Shown: positions 1,185 through 62,482 of the stretch, in pieces
Position numbering within the stretch: the stretch's first letter is position 1
Layout of the letters: each line of letters begins with the position of its first letter
Origin: Hormiphora californensis
Taxonomy: Eukaryota; Animalia; Ctenophora
Reading direction: 5' to 3'
Length of the DNA: 64,000 bases
Assembly (NCBI GenBank): GCA_020137815.1
Contig: CM035362.1
Coordinates: 6,014,001 to 6,078,000, forward strand
The notes under the pieces: model-generated
What the model was told of the DNA's origin: nothing
The model's input: only the letters and a program-made list of their open reading frames with translations
The model's database searches: none
Translations under genes and position numbers: made by a program

Positions 1185-6464
<5,280 letters not shown>

Positions 6465-6908: not shown

Positions 6909-22432
<15,524 letters not shown>

Positions 22433-24132: not shown

Positions 24133-24291
24133 ATATACCCTGTATGAAGAAGGGAAAGTGTTAAATCAGTGTTATTGTCCTGAGATGTCACGACTTGACG
24201 GACAGAAAATAGTAATGGAAGGGGGAGGGGGAGACACAAGTTCAATAAGAAACAGACAGAAAAATAATAAATAGTGCATCAAAATCCTCAC

Positions 24292-24438
24292 TAGTGGAAG
24301 CTCTTACGGTTTTTTCCAACACATACGGCTCAAACTCTGCTCTGTGATTGGCTGAAACTTCCAGGAAGGGAAATTTCAGCCAATCATAGTACAGATTTTG
24401 AGCCGTGCGTGTGGGAAAAACCGTAAGAGATTCCACTA
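24292..24438. mobile_element. MITE between ZF genes 1 and 2
   Basis: tagtggaagctcttacggtttt / aaaaccgtaagagattccacta inverted ends. Confidence 0.7.
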
Positions 24439-24505
24439 CACCGCTTTCTCTGTCAATTCAGTTTTACAACTAAAATTAAAACCGTGTAAAGTATCAAACA
24501 AACAG

Positions 24506-26658: not shown

Positions 26659-26829
26659 GATTTAACCTGCATGGAAATATTATTTTTTAAACAGTGAATG
26701 TGTTATTCTTTTGGACAAAAAATAGTAATAGAAGGGGGAAAGGGAGACACAACTACAAGTTCAATAAAATATACACGGGAAAATAATGAATAGTGCATCA
26801 AACACGTTAAAAATATTTAAATCATAAAT

Positions 26830-29754: not shown

Positions 29755-29802
29755 AAATACTGCTTTCTCTGCCAATTACTTTTTACAACTAAAAATAAAA
29801 TC

Positions 29803-30964: not shown

Positions 30965-31220
30965 GATGTAACCTACGGGAGAAGAGGACTTTGAAACAGT
31001 GGTAATTGCCTACAAATAAAATTAGAAGGGAGGGGAGGGAGGAAATAAACACAAAGTCAATAGACGGTACATAAAACAAGTGAAAGTTAAGAACTTGACA
31101 TTTAACGTCAAAACGTTAAAAGACCACCACAAACATTGTCTTCGCCCAATTCACCTTTTAAAATTAAGTTGCTGTAAAAAGTTGATAAAAATCATATTGT
31201 AATAGTCAATACTACTTTAC

Positions 31221-32457
31221 TCAACAATTAACCTCGTGAATAAATCTTTCAGAAGCCCGACTAAATGTCTTTCCACATTTACAGCAATGAAAGGGCTTCT
31301 CCCCAGCGTGAATCCTTATGTGCCGATTCAAGTGACTTTTCTGAGTAAATTTCTTTCCACAGACCTCACATTTGAATGGATGCTCACCAGTATGAACCAG
31401 TTTGTGTCTTTTATAATTACCAATTTGAGTAAATTTCATCTCACAAACCTCACATTTAAAAGGTTTGATTCCACTATGTACCCGCTGGTGTTCATTCAAT
31501 TCCTTGTTATTTTTGAAACTCATCGGACAAATATCACACTGGAACTTCTTTTTTGGGTGAACAGTTTCAATGTGCTCGTACAACTCTGCTTTAGGTAATC
31601 TAATTCCACAATTTTTGACAGGGCATGAAACAATATTGCTATGAACAAGGATCTGATGTTTATGTAACTGATGTTTATGGACAAAGCTTTTTCCACACTC
31701 CTTACATTTGTGTGGTTTGTATCCACTGTGGGCCAGATGATGTGCAGTAAGATGCCAATCTTGTTTGAAAGCCATAGGACAAACATCACAGAAGTGTTTT
31801 CTATCAGGATGGTCGTCTCGAATGTGCTGATACAAGTCCTTATCTGATGACTTCCAAACAGAACAATCCTTAATTTTACACTGAAATAGTTTAACACGTT
31901 TGATACACAGAATCATCCTTGTAGGTTTTAGTTCAGTTTTAAAAGTAGGATGATCTTTAGGAAGGGATTGCTGGGGAATATCTCGTCGTCGATGGGAAGC
32001 GGGTGGATTTGCAGTGATTAACTCTCCTCCTTCACTAGAATCCTGTTTATTGAATTTCTCACCTCCAGTTTGAATCGAAACACCTGTAGGATAGATGTGA
32101 TAATCATTATTGCAAATGGAACCAACAAGGCTTCAAAACAATGATTCATAACGTTTGATACTACAAATAATGTTAACAAAGCACAACTGAAGACTTGAAG
32201 TTATGTTATAAAATCTTCCAATCTTTAGTAGTCCATTGTTCAAATACCAGGTATAAATGTCACCCTCACAACTCACCATAATCTGAGGAAACCACATTTG
32301 ATGGAGCATCAGATATTGTGCAGGGAGTAAACATTACAGGTTTGATGTCACTTTCCACGTATATTGGTTCTGTTTTCAGAAGGGGAGGAACTTCAAACTG
32401 TCTACCAGTTGTCAATGATACTGGATTACTAGATTCACCAGGTTTTTTATTTGCCAT
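31221..32457 (-). CDS. C2H2 zinc-finger protein 4
   Basis: Exon 1 in ORF 32266-32457 (VPPLLKTEP); finger exon in ORF 31221-31916. Confidence 0.9.
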
Positions 32458-32889
32458 GATTTAACCTGCGAGAAAAAAGAACTTTAAAACAGTGGTAAAT
32501 CCCTGCACATATAATTAGAATTGGGAGGGGAGAGAGGAAATAAACACAAAGTCAATAGATAGAACATAAAAAATAATTGATATTTAACCACCATATATAA
32601 ACACAATTTCTTCGCTTAAATTCATCTTCATCTTTTAAAGGTTTGCAAGATACACAATAAATATTAAATATTTTCTTCTTTTTGTCGTATAGGAAAATAT
32701 TCAAAACATGGCGCTTTCCATAGAAGATAAGTTTTAGGTATCTTGTTATAAAATTAAATCTTTGTCAAATGTTCATATCATTAAAATCATTACTCTTCTC
32801 CTGAACAAGTTACCTCATGAACACGTCTAACAGAAGTAAACAGCCAATCAGAACTCGTTATTTAGGTCACGTGACTGGTTATCAGCCAA

Positions 32890-34040
32890 TCAGGGACCAG
32901 TATTTCCTCCCGAACAAGTTACCTCATGAACACGTCTAACAGAAGCTTGATTAAATTGTTTCCCACATTTATTACAAGAAAAAGGTTTCTCCCCAGTGTG
33001 TGTCCTAATGTGATTTCTCAGGTGACCTCCTTCAGTAAATGCCTTTCCACAGACCTCACATTTGAAAGGGCGGTCTCCAGAATGAATCTTTTTGTGTTTG
33101 TTGAAGCTAGACGATGATGCAAACTTCTTACCACATTCCTCACAAGTGTAAGGTTTAACTCCACTGTGAGTTCTACCATGAGCATCTAATTCTTGTTTTC
33201 TTTTAAAAGACATAGGACAAACATCACACTGGAACTTCTCTTTTGGGTGTGCAGTTTCAATGTGCTCGTACAACTCTGCTTTAGGTAATCGAACTCTACA
33301 ATTTTTGACAGGGCATGAAACATTATTGCTATGAATAAGGATTATGTGTTGATGCAAATGATGTTTAAGGACAAAGCTTTTTTCACACTCCTTACATTTG
33401 TGTGGTTTAGATTTACTGTGGGCCAGGTGATGTCGAGTGAGTTTCGAAAGTTTTTCAAAAGCCATGGGACAAACATCACAGAAGTGTTTTCTATCAGGAT
33501 GGTCGTCTCGAATGTGCTGATACATATCTGTATCTGATGACTTCCAAACTGAACAACCCATGATTTTACACTGAAATACTTTAGCACGTTTGTTATTGTT
33601 TTGTTCAGATTCAGAAGTGGCAGGATCCTTACTAAGAGATTGCTGGGAAGAAGTTGGATTTGAAGTGGCTGACTCTTCTCCTTCACTAGAATCTTGTTTA
33701 TTGAATTTCTCATCTCCAGACTGGATCGAAACACCTGTTGGATAGATGTGATAATCATTATTGAAAATGAAACCAATTAGACTCAGTAACAATGATTTGA
33801 TCACCATTTATCTACAACATTGATAATGAAAATAATTCTGATGAAAAGGCTACCGAAGACTTGCAGATATTATAAAATCTTCCAGGCTTTAGTAGACCAT
33901 AGTTCAAAAACCAGGTATAAATATCACGCTCAAAACTCACCATAATCAGAGGAAAGCACATTTGATGGAGCATCAGATATTGGGCAGGGAGCTGTCAATG
34001 ATACTAAATTATCAGATTCACAAGGTTTTAGGTCTGCCAT
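32890..34040 (-). CDS. C2H2 zinc-finger protein 5 (exon 1 internally deleted; stop codon supplied by a MITE fragment)
   Basis: Finger ORF 32890-33807. Exon 1 (34040-33940) lacks the PPLLKTEP block. Confidence 0.85.
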
Positions 34041-34412
34041 GATTTAACTTCGGGAAAAGATAGCTTAAAAAAGTGGTAATAAGTAAACAACCAATTAGAA
34101 CTGGTTATTTAGGTCACGTGACTGGTTATCAGCCAATCAGGGTCCAGTATTTCCTGATTTGGCCGGTTCCTGAATTCAGGAAAAGATAGCTTAAAAAAGT
34201 GGTAATAGACTTCACATATACATTAGAAGGGAGGGTAGGGAGGAAAGAAACACAATCTCAATGGAAAGCACATAAAACAAGTTAAAGTTAAATACTTGAC
34301 AGTTGTCAAAAGACCACCATATAATAAGCACTTTCTTTCCCCTTTCAGTTTTATAACTTAAAAAGTAAATTACTGTCCAATGTTGATAAAAATCATATCG
34401 TGATAGTCGATA

Positions 34413-35638
34413 CTAATTTCCTGAACATTTAACCTCGTGAAGACGTCTTTCACAAGCCTCAATAAATGATTTCACACACTTACTGCAAGGAAAGGGTTTT
34501 TCCCCAGTGTGTATCCTCATATGCCGCTTAAAGTTATTATCTAGAGCAAATTTCTTTCCACAGACCTCACATTTGAATGGACGCTCACCAGTATGAACCA
34601 GTTTGTGTCTTTTACAAGTACTGATACGAGTAAAAGTCTGACCACACTCCTCACAAATAAAAGGTTTGATTCCACTATGAACCTGCTCGTGTCGAATCAA
34701 TTCGCTGTTTGTGTTGAAACTCATCGGACAAATATCACACTGGAACTTCTTTTTTGGATGTGCAGTTTCAATGTGCTCGTACAACTCTGTTTTAGGTAAT
34801 CTAATTCCACAATTTTTCACTCGGCACGAAACAATATTGCTATGAACAAGATTTTGATGTTGATGTAATTGATATTTATGGACAAAGCTTTTTTCACACT
34901 CCTTACATTTGTGTGGTTTATATCCACTGTGCGCCAGATGGTGGTCAGTAAGATTCGAAGCACACTTGAAAGCCATGGGACAAACATCACAGAAGTGTTT
35001 TCTATCAGGATGGTCGTCTCGAATGTGCTGATACAAGTCCGTCTCTGATGACTTCCAAACTGAACAAATCATGATTTTACACCAGAATACTTTAGCACGT
35101 TTGTTATGGTTTAGTCCATCACAGTCCAGTAAAGTAGAAGGTTCTTTAGAAATGGATTGTTGGTGAACAACTCGTTTACATAGGGAAGGAGCTGCAGTAG
35201 CTGACTCTTCTCCTTTAATAGAATCCTGATTATTGAATTTCTCTCCTCCAGGTTCAATAAGATCACCTGTAGAATAGAGGGAGGGTCAAACAAGGTAAGA
35301 ATAGAATTGATAATCATTATTGGAAATGAAATGAACAATGCTGGAACACAATTATTTTATATTCAGTATTCACAACCTTTGATACTACAAATAACACAAT
35401 TTTAAGACTACTGCAAATACCAGGATAAATATCACACTCAAAACTCACAATAATCTGAGGAAACCACATTAGATTGAGCATCAGATATTGGGCAGGGAGT
35501 AAACATTACAGGTTTGATGTCACTTTCCACATATATTGGTTCGGTTTTCAGAAGGGGAGGAATTTCAAACCTTATGTCAGTTCTTATGTCAGTTTTTTTG
35601 GCCTTTTTTGATAAAAGATCACTCCTTCTTTTTGCCAT
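34413..35638 (-). CDS. C2H2 zinc-finger protein 6
   Basis: Exon 1 MAKRRSDLL...IPPLLKTEP; finger ORF 34413-35072. Confidence 0.88.
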
Positions 35639-36243: not shown

Positions 36244-42487
<6,244 letters not shown>

Positions 42488-43108
42488 GACTACAAAACAA
42501 GGAGGTGAATTAAATCTCCATGGCTACAAAACAGGGGTGTGAATTAAATCTCCATGTCTACAATAGGGAGGTGAATTAAATCTCCATGGCTACAAAACAG
42601 GGGTGTGAATTAAATCTCCATGACTATACAACAGGGAGGTGAATTAAATCTCCATGACTACAATGTAGGGAGGTGAATTATATCAAGAACTATTAATTAG
42701 AAGAGGAGAGTGGAATTTGAATAATGTTCTGCGGAGGTTAAATCTGTTGAAATCATTGACAATTGAGACTCTGAGACACTTTAGATCAATTGCTGGACAA
42801 CTCAGTGTAGATTTTAGTAAGAGCTGCGAATAAAACTAGAGAGCTGATTTTTAAAACAAAACACACAATCGTATAAAAATGGGATTTTTTTGTAAATAAT
42901 TTACTCTTTGATTATTATCTTGTCCCACATAAAACAAAAATACTACGAAAAATAATCCAAACCCAATCACAAGAAACGGTTCCGATCAGGAAATTACAAT
43001 GTTTTTAGGAGCAACATTGCGTCATTGCATTGACAACTTGTTACTAGTAGTAACCAGACGTAACCAGAAGTAATCGCTAGTAGTCATGGTAACCATGGTA
43101 ACCAAAAG

Positions 43109-46100
43109 TTAAGCAGAGATGCATTCAAGTGATGGAACAATATCTATCTCCCGACACTTGCACCAACATCCGGGAGTCGGGCACACCTTGTGTTCTCTGC
43201 AAGAAGGGGGAAATGAGTATCATATATGCATGTAATCATGGAAACTAGTGGGTAACCAATAAATATCAGTAACTATGGTAACCAATTGTAACCATGGTAA
43301 CCAATTGTAACCTTGGTAACTAGCGGATGACCAGTTGGTAACCGATTGTAACCATGGTAACCAGTTGTAACCATGACAACTTAGTGGGTAACCAGTTGTA
43401 ACCAATTGTAACCATGACAACCAATTAAGACTCACCTAAACCAATCAGCCATGTGATCTGAGTGGCAGCCATGTCCACACGCCAGACACCACACAAACCA
43501 GTCACCAAGAGGGTTGGTCCGTGTTATAACTGTGTTTTGCTGTTTCCGCTGTTGTTGCTCGTGACTCATGAACCGTTCAGGGGGTCTTTCAGCTGAATAT
43601 TAGATTTAGGGAGGGATTATATTGGGGATTATATTGGGGGATGTTCAGGGGGTCTTTCGGCTGAATTATATTTAGGGGGTTATATTGTGGGTCGCGTTCA
43701 GCTGAATATCATTAGGGAGGAGTTATTTGTTGATTTAACGGGATGCTCGGTGGAAAGGGTTTTGCCCGGTAAATCGGGGTCTGACTTATTAGTCACGTAC
43801 TCCAGTCACGTACTTCAGTCACGTACTTCAGTCACGTACTCGAGTCACGTACTTCAGTCACGTACCTTTAGTGTTTTGGTTAAACCTCGAAGTAGTCCCC
43901 AGATGATACATGCACAAAGAGCACCGGGGTAGTGGTTTCTTACAGTTAGTAGAGCAGCAGAACCTCTTATCAAAGGGTCTAACCAGGGACTGTGCCTGAC
44001 CGTTATGCATTGGAAGGGTTCGCGGATCTGAAGTAAAAGGAAGATAATTAATCCAACAATTTATTTGGGTACGAGCGGTACGAGGTCCCCCCTGTTCTCT
44101 CCCTGCTGCGCTGTTCTCTCTCGCGATGTAAGAGAGGGTAGTACTGAAAGCTTTCATAAGAATAATAAAGTGGTCATATAACTAGAGAATTGAGAACAGC
44201 TTAACTTACTGCGGATTGATTTTTCGCACTTGTAACATCGCACACTTGAGATATGGTATGGAGGTTCAGCGCGAAGCTCTGGTAACTTCTTCACCTAATG
44301 AAAAATATGAATTGTGAGAACATGATGAGAACATGATGAGAACATGTACCATCACGCTACCAACCTTAAGAAACTGCGCTATTCATTGACGAAATTACCT
44401 CCACCCCCGAGTTTTAGTACCCCCCCCCCCATTAGAACATACCTTGTTCTGGTAGAGAGAACGCTCAATCCACATCCGTCGGATATCTGAACATGATGAG
44501 AAATTAAACATCCATCTCACCAGACAAATTAGGTACATAGCTTCAGTAAAATCTAACACAACGGACCAACTTGCATTGTTGAAGCGGAGTTTTCAAATGT
44601 TTGCAAGGTCAGAGAGAAAAAACAGAGAAAATATTATGGTACATGGTATTGTTCTTACCAAAGAATCGAAGGTAGTTGTTCTTGACCAAGTTACTCAATT
44701 TATCTTTGCTAAAATCAACATATTTATTGGAAAGGGTCAGTGCCAGACAGACGGTTTGGACATCTGATGTCCGGTCGAGATACTCTTGAAGGAGCGCTGT
44801 TAGTGTCTTGCTTTGATTTTGAATACCTGGAGGTGGATTTAAATTACTAATTAATCGACCAATTAAATATATTTTTGCAATGTTGGTGGATCTAATCTGG
44901 GGTTATTTATAAGGGTGTCAAATTGACACTGCCAACAGCTGTCAACCACACCCTCTCTCATCTTAGCTTGGGGCCCCGGCCCCACCCCTGGGGGGGGGGG
45001 GGTCCAGCCCTAAAAAAAGCTAAGCTAACGGCCAAAATCAGGGTACCTTTAGCTTTTTTTAGCTTTTTTTAGCTTTTTTTAGCTTTTTTTAGCCTTTTTT
45101 AGCTTTTTTTAGCTTTTTATAGCTTTTTTTAGCTTTTTTTAGCTTTTTTAAGGCTAAAAAAGCTAAAAAAAAGCTAAAAAAAAGCTAAAATTGAGTTTTT
45201 AGTGGATTCATATAGGTTCGAATCCCGCTGACGCCAAATTTTTTAAACTTTTATTATAACGTTTCAAACTTTTCAACACTACTTTAAACAAATTAATTTG
45301 AGGATCCGTTTTGCTGCCCCTCGCTAATCCTTCTGAGACTTCTGTTTATCCCTCTCCTTAAAGAAAAGACAAGAGAAGACGTGTCTGGTTTTTCTAAGTA
45401 AACAGATCTCAGAGGACCTCGTTGGGTTATACCAAGGACGCCAAGACTTGCAAGGAACGGTTCCTCGCGCCTCTATTTACAGGACAGGATGTCGGGTGTG
45501 GCTACCCATGATGTTATTATGTGCAGGAACGATATGGAGGGTAAGTTGCTCGCCACGAGCTACTCTGATAGATGTAAGGGTGCCAGTATTTTGCAGAGCA
45601 TTAAGGATGATGCAGTGGAGCCTCCAAGTGGAGCCTCCAAAGCGGTTTTATGGACGATGGTCAAGGAACTATATGGATTGTTACCAGAAACACGACGCAT
45701 CTCTACCCACTCATCTGAATCTGTGACATCATTCACTGCTGACGACTTGAGAGATACACTGGATAAGCTGAAAGAGGATCTTCTGAGCACACTACCGGAT
45801 CTGGTTGCCCCCAAGGTTAGCAAGATCTTAGCTCCTAGCAGTGACCAATTGGCAATTCATGCTGTGAATCGCACTGGCTCGGCACAGGAAACTGTGACCC
45901 CTGTGACTCCAATTAAGAGGTATCTGACTATCAAGGATAAAGGTGAGGAAGGACCTATGTGTGAGAAGAAGTGGACTACTGTCGTGAAGACAAAGGTGGA
46001 GAAAGCATTGAATAAGATTCCAGTCCTAGATCTTTCAGTCACCAAGAGGAGGACAAATCTTATGTTTGAGACCGATGAACAGTTGGAACAGGCGAAAGAA

Positions 46101-49100
46101 GTTCTTTCACCGTTCCTTGATGTTTCTCCCGTAGTGGAGAAGGAGAAGAAAAGAGATCCTCGCATCATGATCAATGATCTTGACCAGGACCTACTGGAAA
46201 AAGATCGCCTTCTGTCAGAGATTGTCAGTGATAAGAATGAGTCTGTGAAGAGACTAGTTGGGGAGGGTCACCTGGTGAAGGTGGTCCATGTAAACAGAAC
46301 AGGAAGATATGCAGTGTTCCAGGTCTCTCCAGAAGTGAGGAAGGCGATATCGGAAAGGAAGGACAAGCTATTCTTGAAACTTCGACAGCATTCAGTGAGG
46401 AACAGGTTTTATGTCACGCAGTGTTTTCACTGCCAGCGCTTTGGCCATGTAGCAGGATCCATCTACTGCCCAAACAAGGATAAATCTCCGGTTTGTGCCT
46501 TCTGTACGGGAGATCATGACACTAGGAGTTGCCATGCCAAGAAGGAAAATGTAGTTAGCAGGATGAAATGTGTCAACTGTGATCATGGAGGAAGCAGAGA
46601 GGACAAGCGCCATGCTCAAAGTCACCCAGCCTCCAGCAGTATGTGTCCATTCTATGTAAATGCTAAAGGAAGACTCATGGAGAGTACCAGTGGAGTAACG
46701 AAGCAGGAAAAAAACGTGTACCTGACGAGGGCATGGGAGGATCTGAGAGGAAAACGTCTTGGAGGATTGGCACACTAAACGTCCACTCAGTTATGAATAA
46801 GACGTCAGGTGTAATTACACACTTGGAGGAAAAAGGATGTGACATCTGCTTGGTACAGGAGACTTATCTGAAACAGAGTGACACAGCTAAACTTCAGGAG
46901 ATCAGAGACTATGGTTGGAATATCTTCTCCTCGCCTAGAGCGGAACGTTCAGGAGGTGGAATTGGAATCTTGTACAGGGATGGTGTCAAGTTGAAATACA
47001 CTCCGGTAAAAGCCAAGTTTAAATCGTTTCAAGTCCAGGAAGCCCTTATTGGAGGAGGAAAAGATGTGACGAGGCTATGCAATATCTATAGACCTCCGTA
47101 TACTGGCAAGGCACGGTTTACGGAAGCCCAGTTCCTGGATGAGTTTACCGATTATTTGTCAGAGTTGGTCTGCAAAACGGGGAACCCTATCCTGATGGGG
47201 GACTTTAACTTCCAGGTTCAAGATACTCAGAACTTCTATGCGAAGAAGTTGCTTGGACTACTCGACTCTCTTGGATTTGATCAGCGGGTCCCACTACAAC
47301 CTACTCATGTTCGTGGTGGTACTTTGGATCTGCTTCTCTGCCAAAAAGACAGATATTCTAAGGTTCAATCAGTTGAAGTATTTCCTGACGGAACGACCTC
47401 TGATCATTTTCTTGTATTGGCGGAGCTGTGTATTGAAACTGTAGCAAGTGAATACAAGACTCGTGAAAAAGTGGACATGTACAGAGATTTCAAGGCTGTT
47501 GATATAGAAATACTTCGATGTGCTTTTAGGAGTGTGGATTGGAGTGAAGCGATGGAATCTGGATCAGCTGAGGAGGTTTTGTGTATTTATATGAGGAAAC
47601 TTGAGGAACTTGTGGATAGGACTGTCCCGTTGAAGAGGAGAAAGAAGAGAGGAGCTAAGCTGAGGCCATGGAGAGATAATCCAGAGGTGCGTCAAGTTCT
47701 TCGTCAGCGGCGGAATGCTGAGCGAGCCTGGGAGAACAATAAAACCAGCGTCACGAAGAAGCAGTTCAATGAACTCAAGAGGCAGTTTGGGCGTGTTGAC
47801 AAGGAAGCGAGGACAAACTACGTCAAGGAAGACTTGGAGGAGTCCAGAGATGACCCCAAAGCACTTCAAAGGAAATTGAACCGTCTACTTGGTAATACTG
47901 AGACCTTTATGCCTGAAACCACAGATAAGCGGAGGTTAGCGGATGACTTTGCTGACTTCTTTGTTGGAAAAGTTGATAAGATCCGGTCTACTGTTATTGG
48001 AGAGAAGAATCTGAGGACTAAGAGGAACCCTATTCATCAGACACCCGTCTGTTGTTTTGAGGAATTTGAGGAAGTTTCCCCAGAGAAACTAAAGAGGATA
48101 ATCAAAGACATGCCAGACAAGACATGTGATCTTGACCCTATACCGACTTGGTTAGTGAAGGGGTGTATGCATGAGCTAGCTCCAGTCTTGTGCAGGTTTA
48201 TTAACCTATCTCTTGGATGTTCCAGTGTTCCTGAACTTCTCCAGCAAGCTTTGGTGTTTCCAACGATTAAGAACCCTTATGGCGATAAGGACACTTTGAC
48301 CAATTATCGGCCAGTCTCCAACCTATCTTTTGTCTCCAAGCTTCTTGAAAAGATAGTTCTAGAGCAGCTCAACTCGTATCTTAATGAGAACGAGTTACTA
48401 AATAAGCATCAATCAGGTTACAGGGTGAATCATAGCTGTGAAACCCTACTGATGGGTATGTTTGATGATCTCCTTCGGGATATGGATGAAGGAAAGGTCG
48501 CAGGCCTCTTTCGATTAGATATGAGCGCCGCTTTTGACACAGTGGACCATGGAAAGCTGCTAGAAGTTCTTGAAGAACGGTTTGGAGTGAAGGGTTCTGT
48601 CTTGGATTGGTTCGCCAACTATCTACAAATGAGGACTTATCGGGTAAACGTGGAAGGGGAACTTTCGAGGATTGTCTCTCTGATTTGTGGAGTTCCGCAA
48701 GGTTCACTGCTTGGACCTGTGTTGTTTTTACTGTATGTGGAGGAATTGCAAGATTTGGTCAAACCGTATGGCTTAAGGATTAAACTGTATGCTGATGACT
48801 CGCAATTGTACATCAGCTTTGTTCCAACTGATGAGGAAAACTGGAAACTGGCAAAGAAGAGGACTGAGGAATACTTGTTAAGTGTGAAAGAGTGGATGAG
48901 TGAGCACTGGCTAAAGTGCAATGAGGCAAAGACTGAATTCCTGCTGTTAGGCAAAAACAGCGCCCTGGATAAGATGGTCTATCAGCCCACTGTGGACTTT
49001 GGTGGAGTGGAGATAAGCCCAGTGGACTTTACGGGGAGTACAGGGAAAACACTAGGAGTGTTCCTTGATAGCAACCTCTCTATGGAGAGGCAAATCAACA

Positions 49101-52100
49101 GTGTTAAGAGGCAATGTGGTTTGTTGTTGAAGAATCTATGGCAGGTAAACCGGTGTCTAGATAGATCGACAAAGATACTCCTTGTTAAGCAGCTCATCAT
49201 TTCAAGACTGGATTATTGTAATATCCTTTACCATGGCTTACCTAAGAAGCTTCTCAACAGCCTTCAGAGAGTCTTGAACTCGTGTGTCAGATTTGTTTAT
49301 GGCCTACACGGTCACCAAGACACCTACATGCCATACTTGAAAGAATTGCATGTTCTTCCTGTGGAACAACGTGTCACGTTCAAAGCATGCCTTATGGCGT
49401 ACAAGATTGTACATGGATTGGCCCCTGACTACCTGCAAGATCAGGTCCCTGTTGATGATGGACTTCATGTGATCCGGGCTACTAGAGGAAATGCTTGGCC
49501 TGATGGCCTCAAGCTGAAGTACCCTAAGCTATCAAGTGTCAATGCGACTTCCAAGTTGAGAAGAAGACGTCCGTCGGTTTACCTGCCTGAAGTCTGGAAT
49601 AGGCTTCCCCTTGATCTGAGAGCTGTTGAGTCTGTGGAATCTTTCAAGTCGAAGCTCAAGACTAGTCTTTTCACTGAGGCTTTTGGTGAGACTGGACTGT
49701 CCTCTTAACACTCTCCTTCTTGCTGAGGTATGTGCTCTAGCTGGCACCCGTTTTTTATTATTTTTCTGTATTTAAGCTCGTGGCGAGCAGAAGTGTGAAG
49801 CATAAATTGGGGTTTTTCATAGCACGAGTGTTTTTCTGTGTTTCCAATATACGGACTTTTATATCAATTTTTAGAGTTCCAGGACTCTAACTCAGTCTGT
49901 TATGTAATCAGTCACCGATAGTTATGTGAGCCGATAGTAATGTGAGCCGGTGTAATTTTTCTTTATTATTTTTTGTTCTACTAGAGTACCCGTTTGCTGG
50001 GAACCCGTGACCTGGTAAATGGTAATTTATCCTCATATAACCGGTGACATTTGTGTTTGATTTTTAAAAGATAATTTGTTTGTTCCTTAGAGCAATGAGT
50101 CTCATAGTAGGAGCGGTTAGATCAGCACGTGCAGAAAGTCGCGCGCCACCCTAATCTCAGGTTACTCTCACGGCTTCATTTTGCATCCAATCCAAAAGTG
50201 ACCTTCATCAAACCTGTAGATCTCCTCAAGGAGAAGCGAAAACTTGAGGGACATTTCTTGATAATGATTGGATGCGACCTCGAGGAGCTATGACAATGCG
50301 CAAAAAGGGGTGGCATGCGACTTTAACCACGTGGTGATCTAACCGCTCCTACTATATCATACACCTTGGGTTTTTGAAAAAACGGCCATTACAATTTTGG
50401 TGAGGCGGGTAAATCATTTACTGTAACGCGCGAATTTTCCCAAAAAAGCGCTGCTTTTCTACGCCGCGCGCGGAACCTAGAATTACGCGCGCAGTGTAAA
50501 ATTTTAAAATTCATTGCATTGAAAATTTCCTCGCGTTTTATGTCGCCAAAAAAAAGTCGACGAAAAATTCCAAATTCGTGAATTTAGAATTATAAGAACT
50601 CCGGTCAGTTCTCATCTTGCCAATGCGTTTTCCGGGAACCCCTGGCCAAAGGACATTAAAGTTCACATAACGACCAAGTTTCATATCGATTGGATAAGAT
50701 TTTGGGTGGCTACGGTGAAAAATATCGTATTTTTGGCATTTTTAACTTTCCCGACGCGATTTACGACCCTTAAACATTGAGTTACGGGAAATCGCTATCA
50801 TGTAAAATGAAGTTCAAACGATTCTCTTTCCCCACTATTGCGTTAGTTTTTTGATTTAGAGCCGTTTTCAGGGTCTTAGAAGCGTTTGAAAAATGTAAGT
50901 CTTTTTGTCGCAATGACGTCACCCCGTGACGTCACTGCTATAAAGATCGGATCAAAAATCTGAGCCCGTACTTACATCCGCCTTGGTCCAAGGTACCAGT
51001 GTACAAATTTTCAGGGGTCTAGCTCAAAAACTGTGGGAGGAGTTTGAAAAACCAATTAACGGACAGACTGACTAACATTATGGAATTTATTATATGGATT
51101 AGGGATAAGTTGGCGAGGTCTTACCAGTATATTAACCGTTCAGATCATCCTTCAGTGACAGCAGCAGTTCCGCTGCTCTGTCCCTGTCGGATATGGGCGG
51201 AATATAAACATAGTTATTATTATTATTATTATTAACGTTTTTTGAACTTTTTTAAAACTATTTTTATCAAATTTGAATAATATTTTTATCGAAAAAATGT
51301 CTCCAGAAAATGGCAGTAGGGGGATACAGAAATTGCTATGTATGGACATAAACGGTAGATTATGGTAAAAAATGTGCAGGAAATGAACAAATGCAGTCAA
51401 TAGACGTCCGGAAGGATGAAAATTTAATGGAAAAGTGTCAAGATGAATGCTGAAAAAACATAAAAAGTAGGGCTAAAAAAAGCTAAAAAAAGCTAAAAAA
51501 AGCTAAAAAAAGCTAAAATAAAAAACGCTATCGACCAAAATCAGGGTACCTTTAGCTTTTTTTAGGGCTGGACCCCCCCCCACCCCTAGAATTTGATCGT
51601 CTCCAAACACACACAAACACACACAAACACCCGGACACACACGCATACCAGTAAGTATAACAGCCCGAATGTTTCCCTCTGCTATCTCCCTCTTCATCAG
51701 CTCCTGCAGGAACCGCGTCAGCTTGGAGTCAGGGAGGTATCGGCATCCAAACAGGATCCTATCCTCGAGGAGTAGTTCAGAATCGTGGAGGATCTCAGTG
51801 TATGCACCCTCCAGGGGACCCTGTATTGGAGATAATAGTTTAAAGGGACCCTGTATTGGAGATAATAGTTTAAAGGGACCCTGTATTGGAGATAATAATT
51901 TAAAGGGACCCTGGAGATAATTATACTGTTAGAGGGGGGTAAATTTGTCGATTGGGGAAGTTTAGTGGTTGATATGAATGATGAATCTGAGACACGCTTT
52001 TTGTTGATCGAAAGTACTAACTAACATTTATTTATTGACAGCTTTTCTTACCTCTGCTTTGAGGAAGTTAAACATGGCTCTTACCTCTGCTTTGAGGAAG

Positions 52101-55100
52101 TTAAACATGGCTCTTACCTCTGCTTTGAGGAAGTTAAACATGGCTCTTACCTCTGCTTTGAGGAAGTTAAACATGGCTCTTACCTCTGCTTTGAGGAAGT
52201 TAAACATGGCTTTTCTTACCTCTGCTTTGAGGAAGTTAAACATGGCTCTCACCTCTGCTTTGAGGAAATTAAACATGGCTCTTACCTCTGCTTTGAGGAA
52301 ATTAAACATGGCTCTCACCTCTGCTTTGAGGAAGTTAAACATGGCTCTTACCTCTGCTTTGAGGAAGTTAAACATGGCTCTTCTGTATGGGTTCTGAACT
52401 GCCCCGCCCATTAACTTCAGTTGCTTTCTCCACACGCTATTATCACTGGAGCTGTGGTCATACCCAGAGAGGGCAAACAGGAGGATACGTTTACTGTCAT
52501 CCTCCGGGGATTCCTGTAAAGAGTTTGTACTTTGTCAGTTGACCAGAAGGGGCGAACTCAATTTAAAATAATTCTTTATGATGTACTCCCCCTCGGGTAA
52601 GATGAGAGAGGGTGTGGCTCGGGTTCAACTGTGTGCGATGTATAACTTACCTCAATAAGTTTCTCTAAGACCCCAATGGCCCTCAACAGTGAACTCACCT
52701 CAATAAGTTTCTCTAAGACCCCAATGGCCCTCAACAGTGAACTCACCTCAATAAGTTTCTCTAAGACCCCAACAGTGAACTTACCTCAATAAGTTTCTCT
52801 AAGACCCCGACAGTGAACTTACCTCAATAAGTTTCTCTAAGACCCCAACAGTGAACTAACCTCAATAAGTTTCTCTAAGACCCCGATGGCAGCATCCATA
52901 CCACCCTCCCAGAGTTGGAGAGCCACAACTCTATCCAGGTTGTCCATTTGTTGCTTGGGCCACCTATAGTAAGGTGGGGGACAAGGGTTAATATAATAGC
53001 TCCTATATGACAAGGGGCAGTTTAGAAAGAGTCTCTCTTTCAAAGAGAAATGGATATAAGTCCCCTCTTACCATCTATCAGGGTAGTTGTTATGTGCAAA
53101 ATAAAGGCCATTTAATATGACCTTCAAAAAGAGAAAAATGTTTGGATTGGTGTATATGTATCAGACCTACTAACCGACATATTTCCATGCATTTCGATCT
53201 CCACCTACTAACCGGCATATTTCCATGCATTTAGATCTCCGGGCACTGGTGAAGAACTGGGAGTAGGGCGCCACACGCAGGTCTCCTGTAGTCGAGGAAT
53301 CGTAGTCTGCGGCAAAATGGAGCTTTGAAAAGAACTTGTTGTTCGTTTTTGGATCACGTCTTTTGTAAATGAGAGAATAATCTACACACAACTTCGCTTA
53401 ACTAAACTTATGTTAACTCAGGATAAACTCAGTTAAGTTAAACTAAAACATACCTCCCCCTGTAATGAGTCCACAAATCCCTGCCTTGACATCGAGGGGT
53501 TCAGGTAGATTTGAAATCTTCCCCGTTGGTTGGCGGTGTCTGGGGGTCTCGGTGGGGGTACCCGAGGGTTGAAGAGCGACTAGACCCTCAAAATAGGACC
53601 AGAACGCTTCTAAATCAGGACTACCTGATACTATGGACCTGTTCTTTTTAGGATTGAACTCATAGCCAGCCTTGATTCTTCTAACCATCACATCTGCAAT
53701 ATCCTCTACCTATAATAAAGTGTATGTACACATGGAAAATCAACGCTGATGGCGTTCGGCGTTCCGAAGAGCGGCAGAAAATTCTCGAAAATAAATGCCA
53801 TTGAAACCAATAAACACTTTAGCTGCAACACCGACATCGCTATGTGTTACCTGTGTATCACACTGGATCAACTTATCGGAACAACCCCAAAGTAATGTAT
53901 CATCGGGTGTAAATGCTGGTATCACCATATCGTGAAGAGTCAACACATACATCTCACTCCGCAGTTTTGGACCTGGACACAAGTTACACCGGTGTTACAT
54001 CGCTATCGTAGTACAACTGCTATTTTCTATTAAAATAAGATCAATACCACAATTGTTTTGACTGAGATCTCAGATCAATAAGATCAATCATCAACTTACT
54101 GCCTTCTTCAGGAGTTTTCTTGCAGCACAAGATCTTGTTTGGCTGGTAGGGGTGCCAGGAGAAGTTGGATATATTTCCACTCGCCATGTTCGGAGCACTT
54201 TTCTGCTTGTGTGGATTTCCCGGGGGAAAGGGGGAGAGGGAGGAAAGGGGGGAGAGAAGGGGAAAAAAGGGAAAGGGAGAGAAGAAAACAAGAGAGATGA
54301 GAGAAGGGTCACTGAACCTGTTTTAATTGGGGAAATCAAATGAAGGGGAATTAGGAAAAAGGATGGTGAGGGAGTGAAAAGGGGCTAAGAAGTCTGTCCT
54401 GTTTTTTAAAACATTTTGAGTTTTCACCCCAAACCAAATGGGGTTTTACCGGTTTTACACCCCGTCTTTATTTCTTCTTCCTGTTTTCCCAAAAAATTAA
54501 ATTTCCCTTTTGGTTAACAACCCAAACCCATTTTTTCCTGTTCTAACACACCAAAGTCATCCATTCTCTTTCCTGTTTTAAAACAAAATCTCAAATTCCT
54601 TTCCTGTTTTAAAACACCAAGCCCTTTTTTCCCACCTTTTTTAGCACAATTTCCAATTCTTTACCGGGTTTAAAACAAAGATTTTTTTTAAATGTTTAAA
54701 CCCAAAAAATTTCCCCTTTGTTCTCCCCGTTCCCGTTCTCCAACGTTAAAACCGGAACCAAGTGAATTCTCCTTCCCTGTAGAACACCAAAACTCCTCAT
54801 GCCGTTCACCGGGGGAACCGGGGGCCCCCCCAAAGGGCAACAAAATAAATTTAAAAACCACCTTTTTTCCCCCCCAAAACTATTTCCCTTTTTACGGGAA
54901 AACCCCCAAAAGGGGGGGCCCTCCCCCTGGGTAAAACCCGGGGGTTTCCCCCTTTTTTAAAAAAAAACAGCCGGCCCCCCCCCCAAAAAAAAAAGTATAT
55001 TTTGTTATTCAACCCCCCAAACACATTTCCCCCCCCCCCCTCCCCCGCTCCCTTTCCTTCCCTTTTTTTTCCCCAAAAAGTTCCTTTTTTCCTGCTTACT

Positions 55101-58100
55101 GCTCCCCCCCCAAAAAACCCTTTTTTAATCTAAACCCCCAAAAGTACCCTTTTTCCTTATTTTTTAAAAAAAAAACACTTCCTTTTCACTTAAACCCCAA
55201 ATTCCCTTTTGCTTATTTTCCCAACCCAAAAATTTTTTAACCCCCTTTAAACAACCAAAAATCCTTTCTCTCCCCCAAAAAAGTCCCTTTTTTTCCCCCC
55301 CCGGGGCCTGGATAACCCAAAGGGAAAATCTCTTTTTGGCGCCGAAAAGGGTTTATGGGTCCGGAAACGGGGGGAAAAAGGAAAAAAGGTTTTTTAATTT
55401 TTTCCTGTGGGTTACAAACCCAAATCCCCGTTTGTCCCCGAAAAAAGGTTAATTTGGGGGTTGCTGTAAAATAAACCTTCTTTTTCGTTTTTTTTTAAGG
55501 GGGGGGTTTTTCAAGATCAAAATTATGAAAATCAAAAAAAATCGTAAAAGGGGTTTCCAAAAAAGTCCTTTTTTCTTCCCCTTTTTTTTTTTTTTGGGCG
55601 TTTGGGGAAACCTAAAAAAATTTTAAAAAAACGTTTTTTTTTGGGCCGGAAAATTTCGGTTATCAAAAAAACTGGGTTAATTTTCGGGGGGCTGGGTTTG
55701 GGCCCAGTGGTTGTAAATTTTTTTTTTTCATTTTCTTTAAACACCCCATCACCCTTTTTTAATTTTTTAGAAAAAAAAAAACAAAGGGGGGGGGTTTTTG
55801 GTTTCTCGACGGGGTAAAAAAGGGGGTAGGGGAGTTGGGGGAAAAATTTAAAAAAAAAAAACTTTATCATCCTTTCCTATCCCCTTTTTGCTCACCCCCC
55901 TTCCTTTTTTTTCCTTTTTCCCCCTTTTTCCTTCTTCCCCCCTTTCCCCCCCTTTTTTTCCCCCCCCTTTTTTTTTTTATAAATTAAGGCTTAAAAAGGG
56001 GTATCTTTAATCGTTTTTCAAAGGGAAATTTTTTGTTTTTTAAAAGGGGGGGAGGGAAAAAATAAAAAAAATTTAAAAAGGCTTGGGTTTTTTTTTTCCA
56101 AATTAAAAAAGGGGTTTATCAAATTTTTTCTTTCCCCCCCTTTTTTTAAGGGGGACTTCCCCTTTTTTTTCAAAACCCCTTTTTTTCCAAAAAAAAAACA
56201 ATAAAAAAAAAAAACCCCGGGTTGGGGGGGAAAAAAGGGGGAAAAACCCCCTTTGGGGACCCAAATTCCCTTTTCCCCCAAAACCCCCCCAAAGGGTTGG
56301 GTCCCTTTAAATTTTTTCCTCGGGAAACCCTTTTTGGGGGGGAAAAACCCCCCCCCCGGAAAAAAAAATTTTTTTGTGGGAAAAAACCCCTTTACACCAA
56401 AAAGGGGGCCCCCGGTTTTAAAAAAAGGGGGAAAAAAAAATTTTTAAAAGTAGGGGGGGGGCCCCCCCGGTTTTTAAAAAAGCCCCCCCCCCCAAAAAAA
56501 AAAAAAATTTTTTTCCTTACCCCCCTTTTTAAATTCAAAAAACCCCAAAATTTTAAAAAACCCCCCTTTTTAAAAAACCAAATTTTTTGGGGTTTTAAAA
56601 AAAAAAACCCCCCAAAAGGGGGGCCCCCACCCCAAAATTTTTAAAAACCCTGGGGGGGCCCCCCTGGTCCCCCCCCAATTTGGCCCCCCAAAAACCCCCC
56701 CCCAAAACCCCCTTTTTTTTGAAAAATTTTTTAAATCCCAAAAAAAAGTGCCTTTAAAATTTAAAACCCAAAAAAAAAGGGGGAAAAAAAAAAAAACATT
56801 TAAGGAAAAAAAAAAAATTCCCCTCTTTGGGGAAACCCAAAAATTTCCCCCGGGCCCCAACCCCCCTTTTAGTTGAACCCCCCCGGGAACCCCCCACCCC
56901 AAAACCCGGGGGGAAAACCCCCCCCCCCCCCCCGGGGGCCCCGGGGGCCCCCGGGCCCGGGGGCCAAAGGGGAAAAAACTCGCGAATTTTTTTAAAAAAA
57001 AGAAAAAAGAGGGGGGGAAAATTTTAAAGGGAGTGGCAAACTGAGTGGCCGGGGGCCCTCACCCTTTTTTTTTTCTTTTTTCCCTTTCTCCCCCTCTGTT
57101 GTTTTTTTCCCGTTTAAAAATTCCCCCCCCTTTTTCCCCTTCTTTTCCCTTCTCCCAAAAAACCCCCTAATTTTCTCTTTTTTTCCCTCTCCCCCAAACC
57201 CGGGGGAAAAAAAAGGGAAAAAGGGGGGGAAAAAAGGGGGAAAAAAAAGGGGAGGGGGGGGGGGGAAAAGGGGGGAGGGGGGGAAAGAAGGGGAGGGGAA
57301 GAAGGGAAAAAAAAGGGGAGGCAAAGGAAAAAGGGAAAAAAGGGGAAAAAGAGGGGGCCCCCCGGGGGAAAGGGGGAAAAAAACCCCCCCGGGGGAAACC
57401 CCGGGGCCCCCCCGGGGGGGGGGGGGGTCCCCCCAAACCCGGGGGCCCCCCCCCCCCCTTTTTTTGGGCTCCTTCCCCCCTTTTTTGGGGCCCCCCCCCA
57501 AAATTTTAAAAAAAAAGGGTTTTTTTTCCCCCCCCCCGGGGGCAAAACTTGGGGGGGGAGGGGGGGAAAAGGCCCCTTTCCCCCCCCCCCCCCTTTTTTT
57601 TGGAAAAAGGGGGGGAAAAGGGGAAAGGGAAATTTACTTATTTATTTTTTCCCCGGCCCCCCCGAATTGTTTTTAACCACGGGGGCCCAAAATCCCCCCC
57701 CCCCGGTTTGGGGCTCCCCAAAAAAAGGGGGTGTTGGGGTTTGGGGGGGGGGAAAAGGGTTATTGAAAATAAAAAAATTCTGGGTCTAACCCTTCATTTT
57801 AAATTGTCCCGTCCGTGCCGAGGGACCCAAACCCTTTGGGTAAAAAAAACCCTTTTTTTAAATTTTTAGGTTCCCTGGGTTGCCCTTTGGGGTTTTAAAA
57901 AAAAACCCGGGAACGAAAAAAGGAAAAAGGGCCTTATTTTTTTTGATTTTCCCAATTTAGACAGTTTTAAAAGTCTCCCTCCTTTAAAAAAAAAAATGAA
58001 TTGTTTCCCCGGTTTTTCCGCCCTTTTTTTCCGTTTTTACGGGGGTTTTTTCGGGCGTAGGGGAGGGTTTTGGGTCCCACAGGAAAAAAAAAGGAAAAAT

Positions 58101-61100
58101 TTCCCTTTTTGTTCTCCCCTTTTTTTTTAAAAAAAATTTCGTTTTCCCCAACAGCCCAAATTTTCCGGGCACAAAAACCCCCGTGTTTTAAAAACCAAAC
58201 CCCTTTCTCCCCTTTTTTAAAAAAAAAATTATTTTCCCCCCCCCACCTTTCTAACACCCAAAAATCCTTTTTCCTTACCCGTTTAAACCCCCCAAATTCT
58301 TTTTTTCCTCATTTTAAAACACAAAAATTTTTCCCTTTTCCTTTTTTTCTGGACAAAAAAGATTTTTCCCCCCCTTTTGCAAAAGTTTAAATTTTTTTTT
58401 TTGTTTTCAACCAAACTTTTTTTTTTTTCCCCAAATATTTTACCCCTATCGAACCCAAAAAGAAGGAAAAGAAAAACTGAAAAATGAAGTTGTTTACGGT
58501 TTTGATCACTGCGAACCTTGTAATTAACCGTTTTTCACGGGGATTTCACTGGGCTGTAGGTGACGGTCTTGTGAATCCCACAGTGAAAAAAATTTGGAAA
58601 AATTCCGTTATTTGCTCTCTCGGCAAGCTTTTCCGTAAAACCCACTCAAATTTGCTAGTCTTTTGTGCGGAGCACACAGCAGATTCTGCGGTCTCACTAT
58701 CAGCCCCTGTGTTCTAACACACCAAAGTCATCCATTTCTCCCTCTCACCTGTTCTAGCACACCAAAGTCATCCATTTCTCTCTCTCACCTGTTCTAACAC
58801 ACCAAAGTCATCCATTTCTCTCTCTCACCTGTTCTAACACACCAAAGTCATCCATTTCTCTCTCTCACCTGTTCTAACACACCAAAGTCATCCATTTCTC
58901 TCTCTCACCTGTTCTAGCACACCAAAGTCATCCATTTCTCTCTCTCACCTGTTCTAACACACCAAAGTCATCCATTTCTCTCTCTCACCTGTTCTAGCAC
59001 ACCAAAGTCATCCATTTCTCTCTCTCACCTGTTCTAGCACACCGAAGTCATCCATTTCTCCCTCTCACCTGTTCTAGTACACCAAAGTCATCCATTTCTC
59101 TCTCTCACCTGTTCTAGCACACCAAAGTCATCCATTTCTCTCTCTCACCTGTTCTAACACACCAAAGTCATCCATTTCTCTCTCTCACCTGTTCTAGCAC
59201 ACCAAAGTCATCCATTTCTCTCTCTCACCTGTTCTAGCACACCAAAGTCATCCATTTCTCTCTCTCACCTGTTCTAGCACACCAAAGTACTCCATTTCTC
59301 TCTCTCACCTGTTCTAGCACACCAAAGTCATCCATTTCTCTCTCTCACCTGTTCTAGAACACCAAAGTCATCCATTTCCGTTTTCTCCATCGTATACACA
59401 GGAAACTCTCTGATCTGGACCTGTTTCGCGGTTTTGGTGATGAACCCGATCCGGGCAGGGTGTGTGGGACACCACTCTATCTTTCTGATGTCACTCGTGG
59501 TACATTTGATGGAACGAATTGCTTTCTCCGGGTTTTTCATATTCCTGATGTGTGTGTGAGGAATGTTAGGTGAGGAATTTCGTAATGAAATTACCCCTGT
59601 GGGGTGTGAGCTCCCCTGTGGGCTGCAGGTGTGAGCTCACAACGTTAATAAGTGACTTCGTAACCAAGTGAGGAATTTCAGTCGTGGTAGAAGCTACCGT
59701 CTGACCTCGATTAGGTGAAAACTGATATAACAAGCTGTTTGGGTAAATCTTGGGAAGTTGAGAGCCGGTAAATCGGATCCCAACTTTTATAGTATTTTAA
59801 CCGGATAAAAGTCACAACAAATAAATTACCGTGTATCCCATAGTTTGACATATTCATCAGAATGCGAGGCCAGGATATGTTCATAAGTTGGAGAGAAACA
59901 AACTCCATCCGTCTCCTGGATATCAGTCGCTGGTCGCCGTATTTCCTTGGGTTTTACCCTGAAATATTGTTGATTAAACACACGGCTGCTGTTCCAGAAT
60001 CATACCAAGGAATACCAAGGAATGGCAAAGTATTGATACTATTATTATTTATTTCCAAACCCGCCCTGAAACCTAGCAGTTACACTGAACCCCCCCCCCC
60101 CCCTTCCCCCAAGGGTTCTGCCCCGCCCCCCTTACCGTATATCAAATATCTCAATTCTCTTCTTGCTTGTGCCTGCTACAAGGATATCTGCATTATGTGG
60201 AGACCATGCTATCGACTGGATACTGTCCCCATCGTTTCCGAAGTTCAGCACCTGATAGGTTAGATATATTTAAAGAGTTAGCTGTCTCACTAATGAATTT
60301 TGTCTGAATCATGTGTCACAGTGTGAGCGGTGAGCAACTTTAACCAAGAAAAACATCTTTGGTCACTTCTAAATACATGGTCTGAGTTTGAACACTAAAT
60401 GTCGAACTACCTTGCTTTGTTCAAACCCTCGCGGAAGGGGGGTCGAACAAGGCAAGAACTACCTTTTTCGTCTGCAAGTCCAACACATGAATCCCTTTGG
60501 CAGTTCGACTCTTTTCCGTTGCTATGGCAACCTTGTTAGGCGCCTTAGCACTCCACTCCAAAAGGTGTATCCTCCGTGGTGACTGCCTCGCTTGGTTAAA
60601 ATGGATGCTCTCCAGCTGGAGATCACTGGACCCCCTCTGTGGTTGACTCAAATCCAACCGGAACAACTTCTCCTGGCTTGCTGTTACAACTACGGTTGTG
60701 TCTGTTGGGTGGACAGCAAAGGTTTTCAGCTTATGTTTCGTATGGTCTACATAGGAGTATAGTTCCCTGACTGTTGCTTGGTCGGGAGATAACAGGTAGT
60801 CTTGGTTCCGACGATCTTCCGTCTGGGAATATGAGAATTATATTAATATCTTAAAGAAGAGTAGCAGTATTATTAGCAGTAGATGAAATCTTCTAAATAG
60901 TCTTCTGAATAATTGAGTTGTGTACCCATTGTGTAAAGTCCATTTCAACTGTTCCCCCAAAAACTTAAATTTAGAATTTTTGTGGCGTGTGATATACACA
61001 TAAAACAGTTCTGCACACGACTTTGGAGGGGGATCAGCTGAAAAATGGAGTATATCATGTGTATCCATTGTGTATCCATTGTGTTGAGATTTACCTCAGT

Positions 61101-61434: not shown

Positions 61435-62482
61435 TTAAAATTTGTTCAAAAAGCTGGCCAACTGAACATAATCCGGTGCTGATTCCCACTTGAACTCAAG
61501 TCCAATTGTAAGGTAGGACAATGTAGGAGAGTCTGAAATGTGTTGAAATAGTTTCTCATAGTCAACTCCCCCAGGCGATGTTATCTCTGTTCTATCAGGC
61601 GTCTGGGCAACCTAGGTGAAATAGTTGTTAAATAATTCCTTGAATTGCACAGTACAATATTAATTATTTATTGAATCTGTTTACAATAATTTACAAAAAC
61701 ACCATGTCCCAAATACAGGGTGGTTTTGTGGGTTTTTGTCGACTGTATACCTGAATGTATCCAATAGAACTGGCATTTTCATCCATCAATTGTATTATCT
61801 CCTCAGTAGAGTACCCAAGGCAGTTCAAATGAAAAGTGTCAAACTGGAGCTTTATGTTTTCTTTTCCAATTTTCTTCAAAAGTTCAATCGCCTTTGGGAA
61901 GTTGTCAAGAAAATACCCAGGTATTACACCCCCACTAATGACTTCTACCAATCCTATAATACCTTCATTTTCAAGCATCTCACTTGCTTTTTGAAGGTTG
62001 TCAACGAAGGTTCTTTCATTGCCAGTGGCAGCAAGACCGGCCATGATATGAAGTCGAGAACATTTCAAGGCTTTACAGTACCGAATACCTTGTTCGATTC
62101 CCTCCAAGAACTGTTCCTTTCCTCCCTCTGTCGACGCGAATCCAGGCTCCTTATTTGGTCCCAAGGATGTGTTAATTAGTTCTATATACAAGGGGTAGCT
62201 GTCTAATTGTTTATCCCATTCCTCGATCGACCAAGTATAAGGAAACGCAACTTCTATCGACAGAAAGCTCTTATCTGTGGCCTTTTCTAGACGCTTTCCG
62301 AGAGGTCCCAGTGTCCCATCTTCTTTAAATTTATCAACAAACATTGTACCAATGTTGTAAGCGTATTTCTTCTTGATGTCCATGTTGTAAGTTGTCTCAT
62401 ATGAGACCCTCCTCTCCGCACCGGGCCGCGGTGTACAGTCAGTGTAGGAAAAGTTGTAAGCGTATTTCTTCTTGATGTCCAT
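61435..62482 (-). CDS. HYI: Putative hydroxypyruvate isomerase (2 exons)
   Basis: YNIGTMF...IEVAFPY...LINT...YCKALKCSRLHIMAG...GLVEVI...IPGYFL...IKLQFDTFH...IGYIQ|VAQTPDR..PGGVDY...IGLEF. Intron ~61614-61751. Confidence 0.88.

Follow-up and report, generated by a model that had tools for sequence, protein, structure and literature searches.

Minisatellites whose units lie across exon-intron edges are known from amphioxus as 'mirages' and occur in Adh3, the globins BflGb6 and BflGb9, troponin C, and PGBD5, with splicing reported to be unaffected (PMC3087553, PMC3902484). How do such repeats arise? The main text of PMC3087553 calls the mechanism unclear, and the words 'synonymous', 'silent', and 'gene conversion' are absent from that text. 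Human exon/intron-boundary VNTRs with 5' pseudo-sites include a 37 bp repeat in F7 IVS7 and those of CBS IVS13, LMNB2, PDGF, and 6-16 (PMC1557585). In the Rogers model, introns are gained via tandem duplication of AG|GT (PMC3265369). The array described here belongs to a repeat class already known. What seems to be new is a codon-respecting silent bias in the copies; a search of the open-access literature found no report of silent bias in such splice-junction copies. The window, the whole 64,000-nucleotide stretch of Hormiphora californensis DNA that was analysed, contains the array in an intron of a predicted MIOS-like gene.

The Focal Array and Its Host Exon

Ten exons joined by AG/GT edges yield one open frame for a MIOS-like protein (GATOR2 WD40). 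WD40 matches fall on the upstream exons, Pfam MIOS_a-sol matches single later exons (E 4e-5 and 0.03, both short of the curated cut-off), and the MIOS_WD40 cluster holds rank 3 in the Atlas listing. A WD40 propeller followed by a MIOS alpha-solenoid identifies the predicted gene as MIOS-like. No homologue turned up with the first MIOS-like ORF as query, and a metagenome scan with the template exon found no locus. Because the joined exons give one open frame with Pfam matches, the reading frame is fixed independently of the repeat. The features of the locus are as follows.

59349-59544, minus strand: template exon of the MIOS-like gene in the open 10-exon AG/GT model; its last 30 nt (59349-59378) are the repeat template
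59347-59348, minus strand: GT of the true donor, where short-read contigs depart from the window
58710-59348, minus strand: mirage array of 15 full 40-nt units and a terminal partial copy, from repeat and alignment
59289-59290, minus strand: GAT GAC to GAG TAC, the sole internal non-silent change, in one unit
54203-58500, no strand assigned: homopolymer-rich, low-quality block in the same intron, with unreliable assembly and garbled copies of the array and its flank
54100-54202, minus strand: next MIOS-like exon in the exon model, phase 0, compatible with the donor at 59349

The 40-bp repeat spans 58710-59378 on the minus strand (16.7 units), and each full unit is GTGAGAGAGA plus a 30-nt copy of the end of exon 59544-59349. 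The intron holds 16 copies of the exon end and splice signal in total, 15 full and one terminal and partial. The 30 exon nt and the GT are present in 15 of 15 full units, so that the unit spans the exon-intron boundary. As the initial annotation had read it, the exon ends GAC TTT GGT GTT CTA GAA CAG|GT at 59349, and every silent replacement it listed is found in the copies. The exon's GTT codon is GTG in 14 of the 15 full copies and GTA in the other; CTA is TTA in 5 of 15 (6 of 16 counting the terminal partial copy), and TTT is TTC in 1 of 15. GTT CTA, the state of the exon in the window, is absent from every focal copy. The description of this variation as synonymous-only does not hold: four distinct alleles are silent (GTG, GTA, TTA, TTC) and two are non-silent, or three if the CAC of the terminal partial copy is counted. 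A single internal unit, placed near 59285 by the initial annotation, does carry all of the internal non-silent change, but it has two substitutions (GAG TAC), and the terminal CAC comes on top of these. One intronic change was found in the array, in 2 units.

Against a neutral silent share of 0.23 (transition weight 2.6), the focal array gives P 0.029 (4/6) or 0.055 (4/7), and P = 0.012 with the GAG TAC doublet as a single event. Minus the GTT site, 3/5 alleles are silent (P 0.09). The silent bias at the focal array taken alone (P 0.01-0.06) is suggestive only.

Splicing from any distal focal donor would lead to a TGA within the first unit. Read-through translation, already discounted in the initial annotation, was rejected on this ground as the cause of the focal pattern. 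Also rejected were a tandem cassette and mutually exclusive exons: the unit has 40 nt, the 10 nt between copies are purine-rich, and a stop lies in the first unit. The focal copies are preceded by no pyrimidine tract.

Short-Read Check

Short-read DNA runs X1, X2, X4, X5, and X6 represent two samples and two studies, one of which may be the window's source. The read check covered the focal array; the other arrays were judged from the window sequence. In X2 and X4, the contigs made of the unit show 1-3 differences relative to the exon end, and their depth is 5-17 times that of single-copy sequence. The core unit contig of X4 splits at 59357-59358, the window's main variable sites, and the joint that 'goes back 40' has a depth of 317 versus 36 in X1. 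Because of this depth in X2 and X4 and the break of X4 at variable sites, the focal repeat and its main variants are not sequencing errors, a possibility that the initial annotation had raised.

Does the array adjoin the true donor? The exon-anchored contigs of X2, X4, X5, and X6 depart from the window after CAG|GT into an intron that starts GTAAAT (loose ends of 42-120 letters), and the X1 exon contig carries 188 unaligned letters from the same departure point. The CAG|GTGAGA junction of the initial annotation thus stands in the window, but the GTGAGA intron start occurs only there; 5 of 5 runs with an exon contig have the other start. The spacer between exon and array is at least 120 nt in the reads and absent from the window, where a search for its edges at up to 3 mismatches found nothing. 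The authentic junction has adjoining copies in the window, whereas the array lies apart from the exon in 5/5 runs; the direct exon-array join was seen in none of them. In most haplotypes a spacer probably separates the focal array from its exon. The direct join in the window is either an assembly collapse or a real deletion allele, with collapse somewhat the likelier; collapse is plausible because the garbled block 54203-58500, which aligns to array and flank only loosely, sits in the same intron. By its unit anatomy the focal array is a mirage-type minisatellite, although its adjacency to the true junction is uncertain.

In X5, unique intron DNA and a GA tract precede a single unit. Contig depth, a rough measure of copy number, gives about 17 units in X4, one in X5, and none in X6 (where absence is not proof). 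By this rough measure, array copy number varies between alleles or individuals. Somatic instability has reportedly been observed for the Adh3 mirage.

Allelic Diversity in the Exon

All 10 SNPs listed in the template exon from the short reads are silent. Among 26 coding SNP sites classified from 40 of 225 rows of one listing and from the exon listing, 19 of 19 in the MIOS-like gene and 4 of 7 in the neighbouring gene are silent. Haplotypes differ from the window by 0.12-0.31 per silent site, if all differences are taken as silent, compared with 0.23 for the copies. The exons of X1, X2, and X4 have the GTT CTA that no focal copy has. In the X5 and X6 exon contigs, difference counts and 30-nt contig overlaps imply about 3 further differences, absent from the SNP listing, within the final 27 nt of the exon. 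The host species is hyperpolymorphic; its heterozygosity is reported as ~3.2% (PMC8527503).

Other Features of the Window

A second, tandem FtsH/YME1L-like gene occupies 1185-6114; in its exon near 3401-3283 there are apparent indels, attributable to assembly errors or to decay. At 10740-13620, an intron of the FtsH-like gene holds a foldback-like element with long inverted arms of an 11-nt minisatellite. A 17-nt minisatellite of about 15 units (17682-17934) lies directly ahead of the acceptor at 17675, and its units, with CTAAT/TTAAC motifs, are branch-point-like. About six zinc-finger genes, presumably of the C2H2 family, cluster at 22669-35285 and have a common 20-letter protein motif. The MED10 gene (Pfam Med10) is on the minus strand at 36318-42496; an acceptor array (42481-42684) covers its start codon, and its first intron contains a plus-strand, two-exon Sushi-domain sequence near 41574-41747. 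Of three LINE-like sequences (45402-49705, 27128-29470, and 38517-39689), one is an apparently intact two-ORF element (458 aa, 1013 aa), presumably with endonuclease and reverse transcriptase motifs, and two are partial. An intronless-looking gene for a xylose-isomerase-like TIM barrel (Pfam AP_endonuc_2) lies at 61694-62384, and its product shares 83-84% identity with two proteins labelled Pleurobrachia bachei.

Other Junction Copies in the Window

Both edges of 32 modelled exons (64 edges) were scanned for flanking copies with a frame-blind ungapped score. Outside the scan were MIOS-like exon 1 and all MIOS-like exons beyond 51649, FtsH-like 22135-22032, and 6114-6022 and 3401-2800 of the second FtsH-like gene. 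No flanking copy was found at exon 1440-1185, for which the frame entered was wrong. Flanking copies are present at 13 of the 64 edges, and include the following.

53175-53202, minus strand: single donor-side copy of the end of MIOS exon 53306-53213; 2 silent, 0 non-silent
52644-52860, minus strand: five donor copies of the end of MIOS exon 52963-52861; 1 silent variant, donor +3 varies
52046-52351, minus strand: nine in-frame 33-nt donor copies of the end of MIOS exon 52513-52352; 1 silent, 1 non-silent at the unit edge
18462-19335, minus strand: eight 100/121-nt donor units after FtsH/YME1L-like exon 19571-19336; mosaic units
21154-21370, minus strand: four donor copies of the end of FtsH-like exon 21436-21371; one non-silent difference in all four, a counter-example
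20943-21002, minus strand: acceptor-side copy of the start of FtsH-like exon 20933-20784; 1 non-silent, a counter-example
3779-3801, minus strand: acceptor-side copy of the start of exon 3765-3643 of the second FtsH-like gene; 1 silent
2273-2311, minus strand: acceptor-side copy of the start of exon 2234-2105 of the second FtsH-like gene; 5 silent, 0 non-silent in 13 codons

With 5 silent differences at about 9 silent sites, the 2273-2311 copy is further from its exon than alleles are from one another on average. The 18462-19335 array has 8 silent and 2 non-silent variants in 51 exon-derived nt and 6 variants in 49 spacer nt, and three silent states occur at one codon among its copies. In this array 27 of 78 site pairs fail the four-gamete test, and therefore units recombine or convert.

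Two arrays were excluded from the tally of variants. The 34-bp units of 42481-42684 contain only 5' UTR and the MED10 start. At 8212-9456, in the last FtsH-like intron, 36 copies of a 34/35-nt donor-like unit carry a strong GTGAGT donor with no modelled exon ahead, the FtsH-like model being complete without an exon there; by eye, its sole open frame mixes silent, non-silent, and length changes. It is either a detached donor array or an unmodelled exon. A large duplication (7803-8075 and 10323-10590) brackets this array and holds the last 90 nt of FtsH-like exon 10598-10496, exon-identical and with the donor. In 52644-52861 the first and presumably used donor is GTTAGT, and downstream copies have the stronger GTAAGT or GTGAGT. 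Across 1185-22135 and 51649-60837, three genes contain 28 locally duplicated blocks, of which 13 reach a splice junction; a random 40-nt unit would be expected to do so in about 20% of cases (P 0.001, a crude estimate). In the MIOS-like gene 5 of 5 blocks do.

Silent Bias across the Window

Over the 13 copied edges, the distinct variants, which are small counts from one window and within one array are not independent events, number 22 silent and 7 non-silent against a silent share of ~0.25 expected (P 1e-8); 2 of the 7 are probably unit-edge effects and were kept. The bias seen at the focal array is replicated elsewhere in the window. With the expected share at 0.21-0.29 (transition weights 1-10), P for 22:7 lies between 3e-10 and 3e-7, and under a stricter null, in which an equal exon branch undergoes silent-only change, P is 8e-5 (range 7e-6 to 8e-4). 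Transition bias was considered as a cause of the excess and rejected, since the result holds over these weights and transversions alone are biased (10/15 silent versus 0.15 expected). Shifting the frame either way turns the ratio into 3:26 silent to non-silent. Without the focal array, 18 silent and 4 non-silent variants remain. The per-site variation of these non-coding copies is 0.23 at silent and 0.019 at non-silent sites, which puts the non-silent to silent ratio close to 0.08.

The distribution of variants among copies is also informative. Variants that differ among copies in arrays of at least 3 units are 12 silent and 5 non-silent (P 1e-4). Those found in at least two copies are 12 silent and 1 non-silent, while singletons are 2 silent and 5 non-silent (P 0.007). 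Five of the 8 units in the 18462 array also have TTA for TTT, a non-silent change just beyond the trimmed alignment; its inclusion gives 22:8 for the tally and 12:2 for shared variants.

Capture versus Selection

How can non-coding copies respect codons? If the copies were under selection, silent variation would be about equal to spacer variation, and non-silent variation would fall below it. For the array at 18462-19335, 8 of the 34 possible silent changes occur, against 6 of 141 possible changes in the spacer (P 0.001); of 119 possible non-silent changes 2 occur, which does not differ from the same spacer count (P 0.30). Pooling this array with the focal one gives P 1e-4 for silent versus spacer and P 0.36 for non-silent versus spacer. 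Silent changes exceed the spacer, and silent sites therefore carry extra variation from outside the array. Of the 6 spacer variants, 4 fall within intron positions 1-13, a stretch that is itself homologous to the intron starts of alleles (a post hoc observation). The spacer comparison points to standing exon alleles being imported, rather than to selection on the copies.

The units of this splice-junction minisatellite are non-coding copies of an exon end, and we consider it probable that other functional alleles of that exon supplied their silent differences. In this scheme, a (GA)n tract near the start of the intron would have received a copy of a 32-nt piece (exon end plus GT), and the GA repeats on either side could allow its expansion into an array of 40-nt units. 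Through unequal crossing-over or short gene conversion, the array may then pair repeatedly with exon ends that belong to other alleles on the homologous chromosome. For gene conversion, 30-50 nt of homology is short. The captured ends would import silent differences only, because purifying selection has already filtered their source. If unit turnover outpaces new mutation, unbiased new mutations should remain rare singletons, as expected from the split between shared variants and singletons. The copies would need no function. By analogy with F7 (PMC1557585) and lancelet data (PMC3087553, PMC3902484), the first donor is predicted to be the one in use.

The initial annotation had proposed exchange with, or capture from, the exon. 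The 18:4 replication, the frame control, the silent excess over spacer, and the silent-only exon SNPs support that proposal; the marginal statistics of the focal array alone and its probable detachment weaken it, and capture, the flow of exon alleles into the array, is favoured over two-way exchange.

Alternative Explanations

Might the units also return to the exon? In two-way exchange with second-order selection, units would be swapped back by conversion or by deletion from exon end to unit, and arrays with non-silent units would be purged in a very large population. We regard this as unlikely. It would account for shared variants being nearly all silent when singletons are not, the direct exon-array join of the window could be such a deletion product, and the S2 exon end looks more divergent than the rest (X6, ~3/27 nt versus ~4/169 nt; P ~0.06, by hand). 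Yet it predicts silent variation equal to spacer and above non-silent variation, and silent variation was found far above spacer, with non-silent near spacer. Moreover, the current exon allele is in no copy of either the focal or the 18462 array, and none of the five runs has the deletion-like join.

A history without repeated exchange is less likely still: copying once on the same chromosome, followed by silent substitutions in the exon, chance, and transition bias. Such a history would explain fixed differences between the exon and all copies (GTT versus GTG/GTA; GGG versus GGT) and is consistent with the non-significant result for the focal array minus the GTT site. It is opposed by the rejection of the two-branch null (P 8e-5 to 8e-4, transition weights 2.6-10), the 12:5 ratio of copy-polymorphic variants, the bias of transversions alone, and the three silent states at one codon within one array.

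Could the copies be translated, through distal donors or as mini-exons, and so be under ordinary purifying selection? In units of the 18462 array, an in-frame 51-nt exon copy is flanked by an upstream AG and a downstream GT, the MIOS array of 33-nt units keeps the frame, and some pseudo-donors are used in the human CBS and 6-16 arrays (PMC1557585). However, selection on protein cannot raise silent sites above the spacer rate, the focal distal donors hit a TGA in the first unit with no pyrimidine tract before the copies, and the 2273-2311 copy reads into a stop without a donor, all of which make translation very improbable. An artefact, with haplotypes stitched in tandem or read errors, could be suspected from the garbled 4.3-kb block in the same intron, the join unseen in five runs, and the apparent indels in one exon of the second FtsH-like gene, but is hardly credible when X1, X2, and X4 contigs carry the 40-nt unit at high depth and branch at the same sites, and when errors would not respect reading frame.

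Comparison with Known Systems

Capture from exon alleles would make these arrays useful. A low non-silent to silent ratio is a built-in tracer, marking the units as descendants of functional alleles carried by other chromosomes. With it, unequal exchange between alleles over 30-50 nt would become directly measurable in a single genome, and each array would be an archive of present or lost alleles. There are also two warnings: low dN/dS in intronic exon copies is no evidence of a hidden exon, and such copies can mimic silent SNPs at exon ends or collapse in assemblies. A broader proposal, which we find rather doubtful, is that in hyperpolymorphic marine invertebrates the arrays act as live two-way reservoirs that collect exon alleles and return them, recoding thousands of exon ends, raising silent diversity near splice sites, and keeping the repeats codon-compatible.

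Low non-silent to silent ratios in non-coding copies likewise result from exchange with a working gene in silent-cassette systems and in pseudogenes that conversion by a functional copy keeps similar to exons. Here, however, the scale is 30-50 nt and the copies lie in the gene's own intron; the favoured flow is from exon alleles to copies, with no sign of programmed variation.

Like the Rogers model, this locus involves short intragenic duplication that includes splice signals, but no new intron results, the copies lying inside an existing one (PMC3265369). The human boundary VNTRs also place a row of donor copies after the true donor, mostly silent since the most upstream site is chosen; the units of F7, with 4 exon nt only and identical donors, offer no readable codon signal, whereas those in the window hold 20-60 exon nt and many silent variants (PMC1557585).

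The closest likeness is to the amphioxus mirages, which have tandem units over exon-intron edges at donors and acceptors, variable copy number, and a highly heterozygous marine host (PMC3087553, PMC3902484). In supplement 4 of PMC3087553, which gives two haplotypes of the lancelet BflGb6 mirage, a by-eye tally in the phase-2 frame finds 17 silent and 7 non-silent changes and two indels versus the haplotype 1 exon. By eye, the BflGb6 exon haplotypes of that source differ by 5 silent changes, all 5 of which occur among the copies; at three haplotype-differing sites both states are present in the copies, and shared ancestral states explain part of this. The differences are that the array in the window belongs to a ctenophore and, in most haplotypes, probably lies beyond a spacer rather than against its exon, and that here the codon-respecting bias has been measured and tied to allelic diversity.
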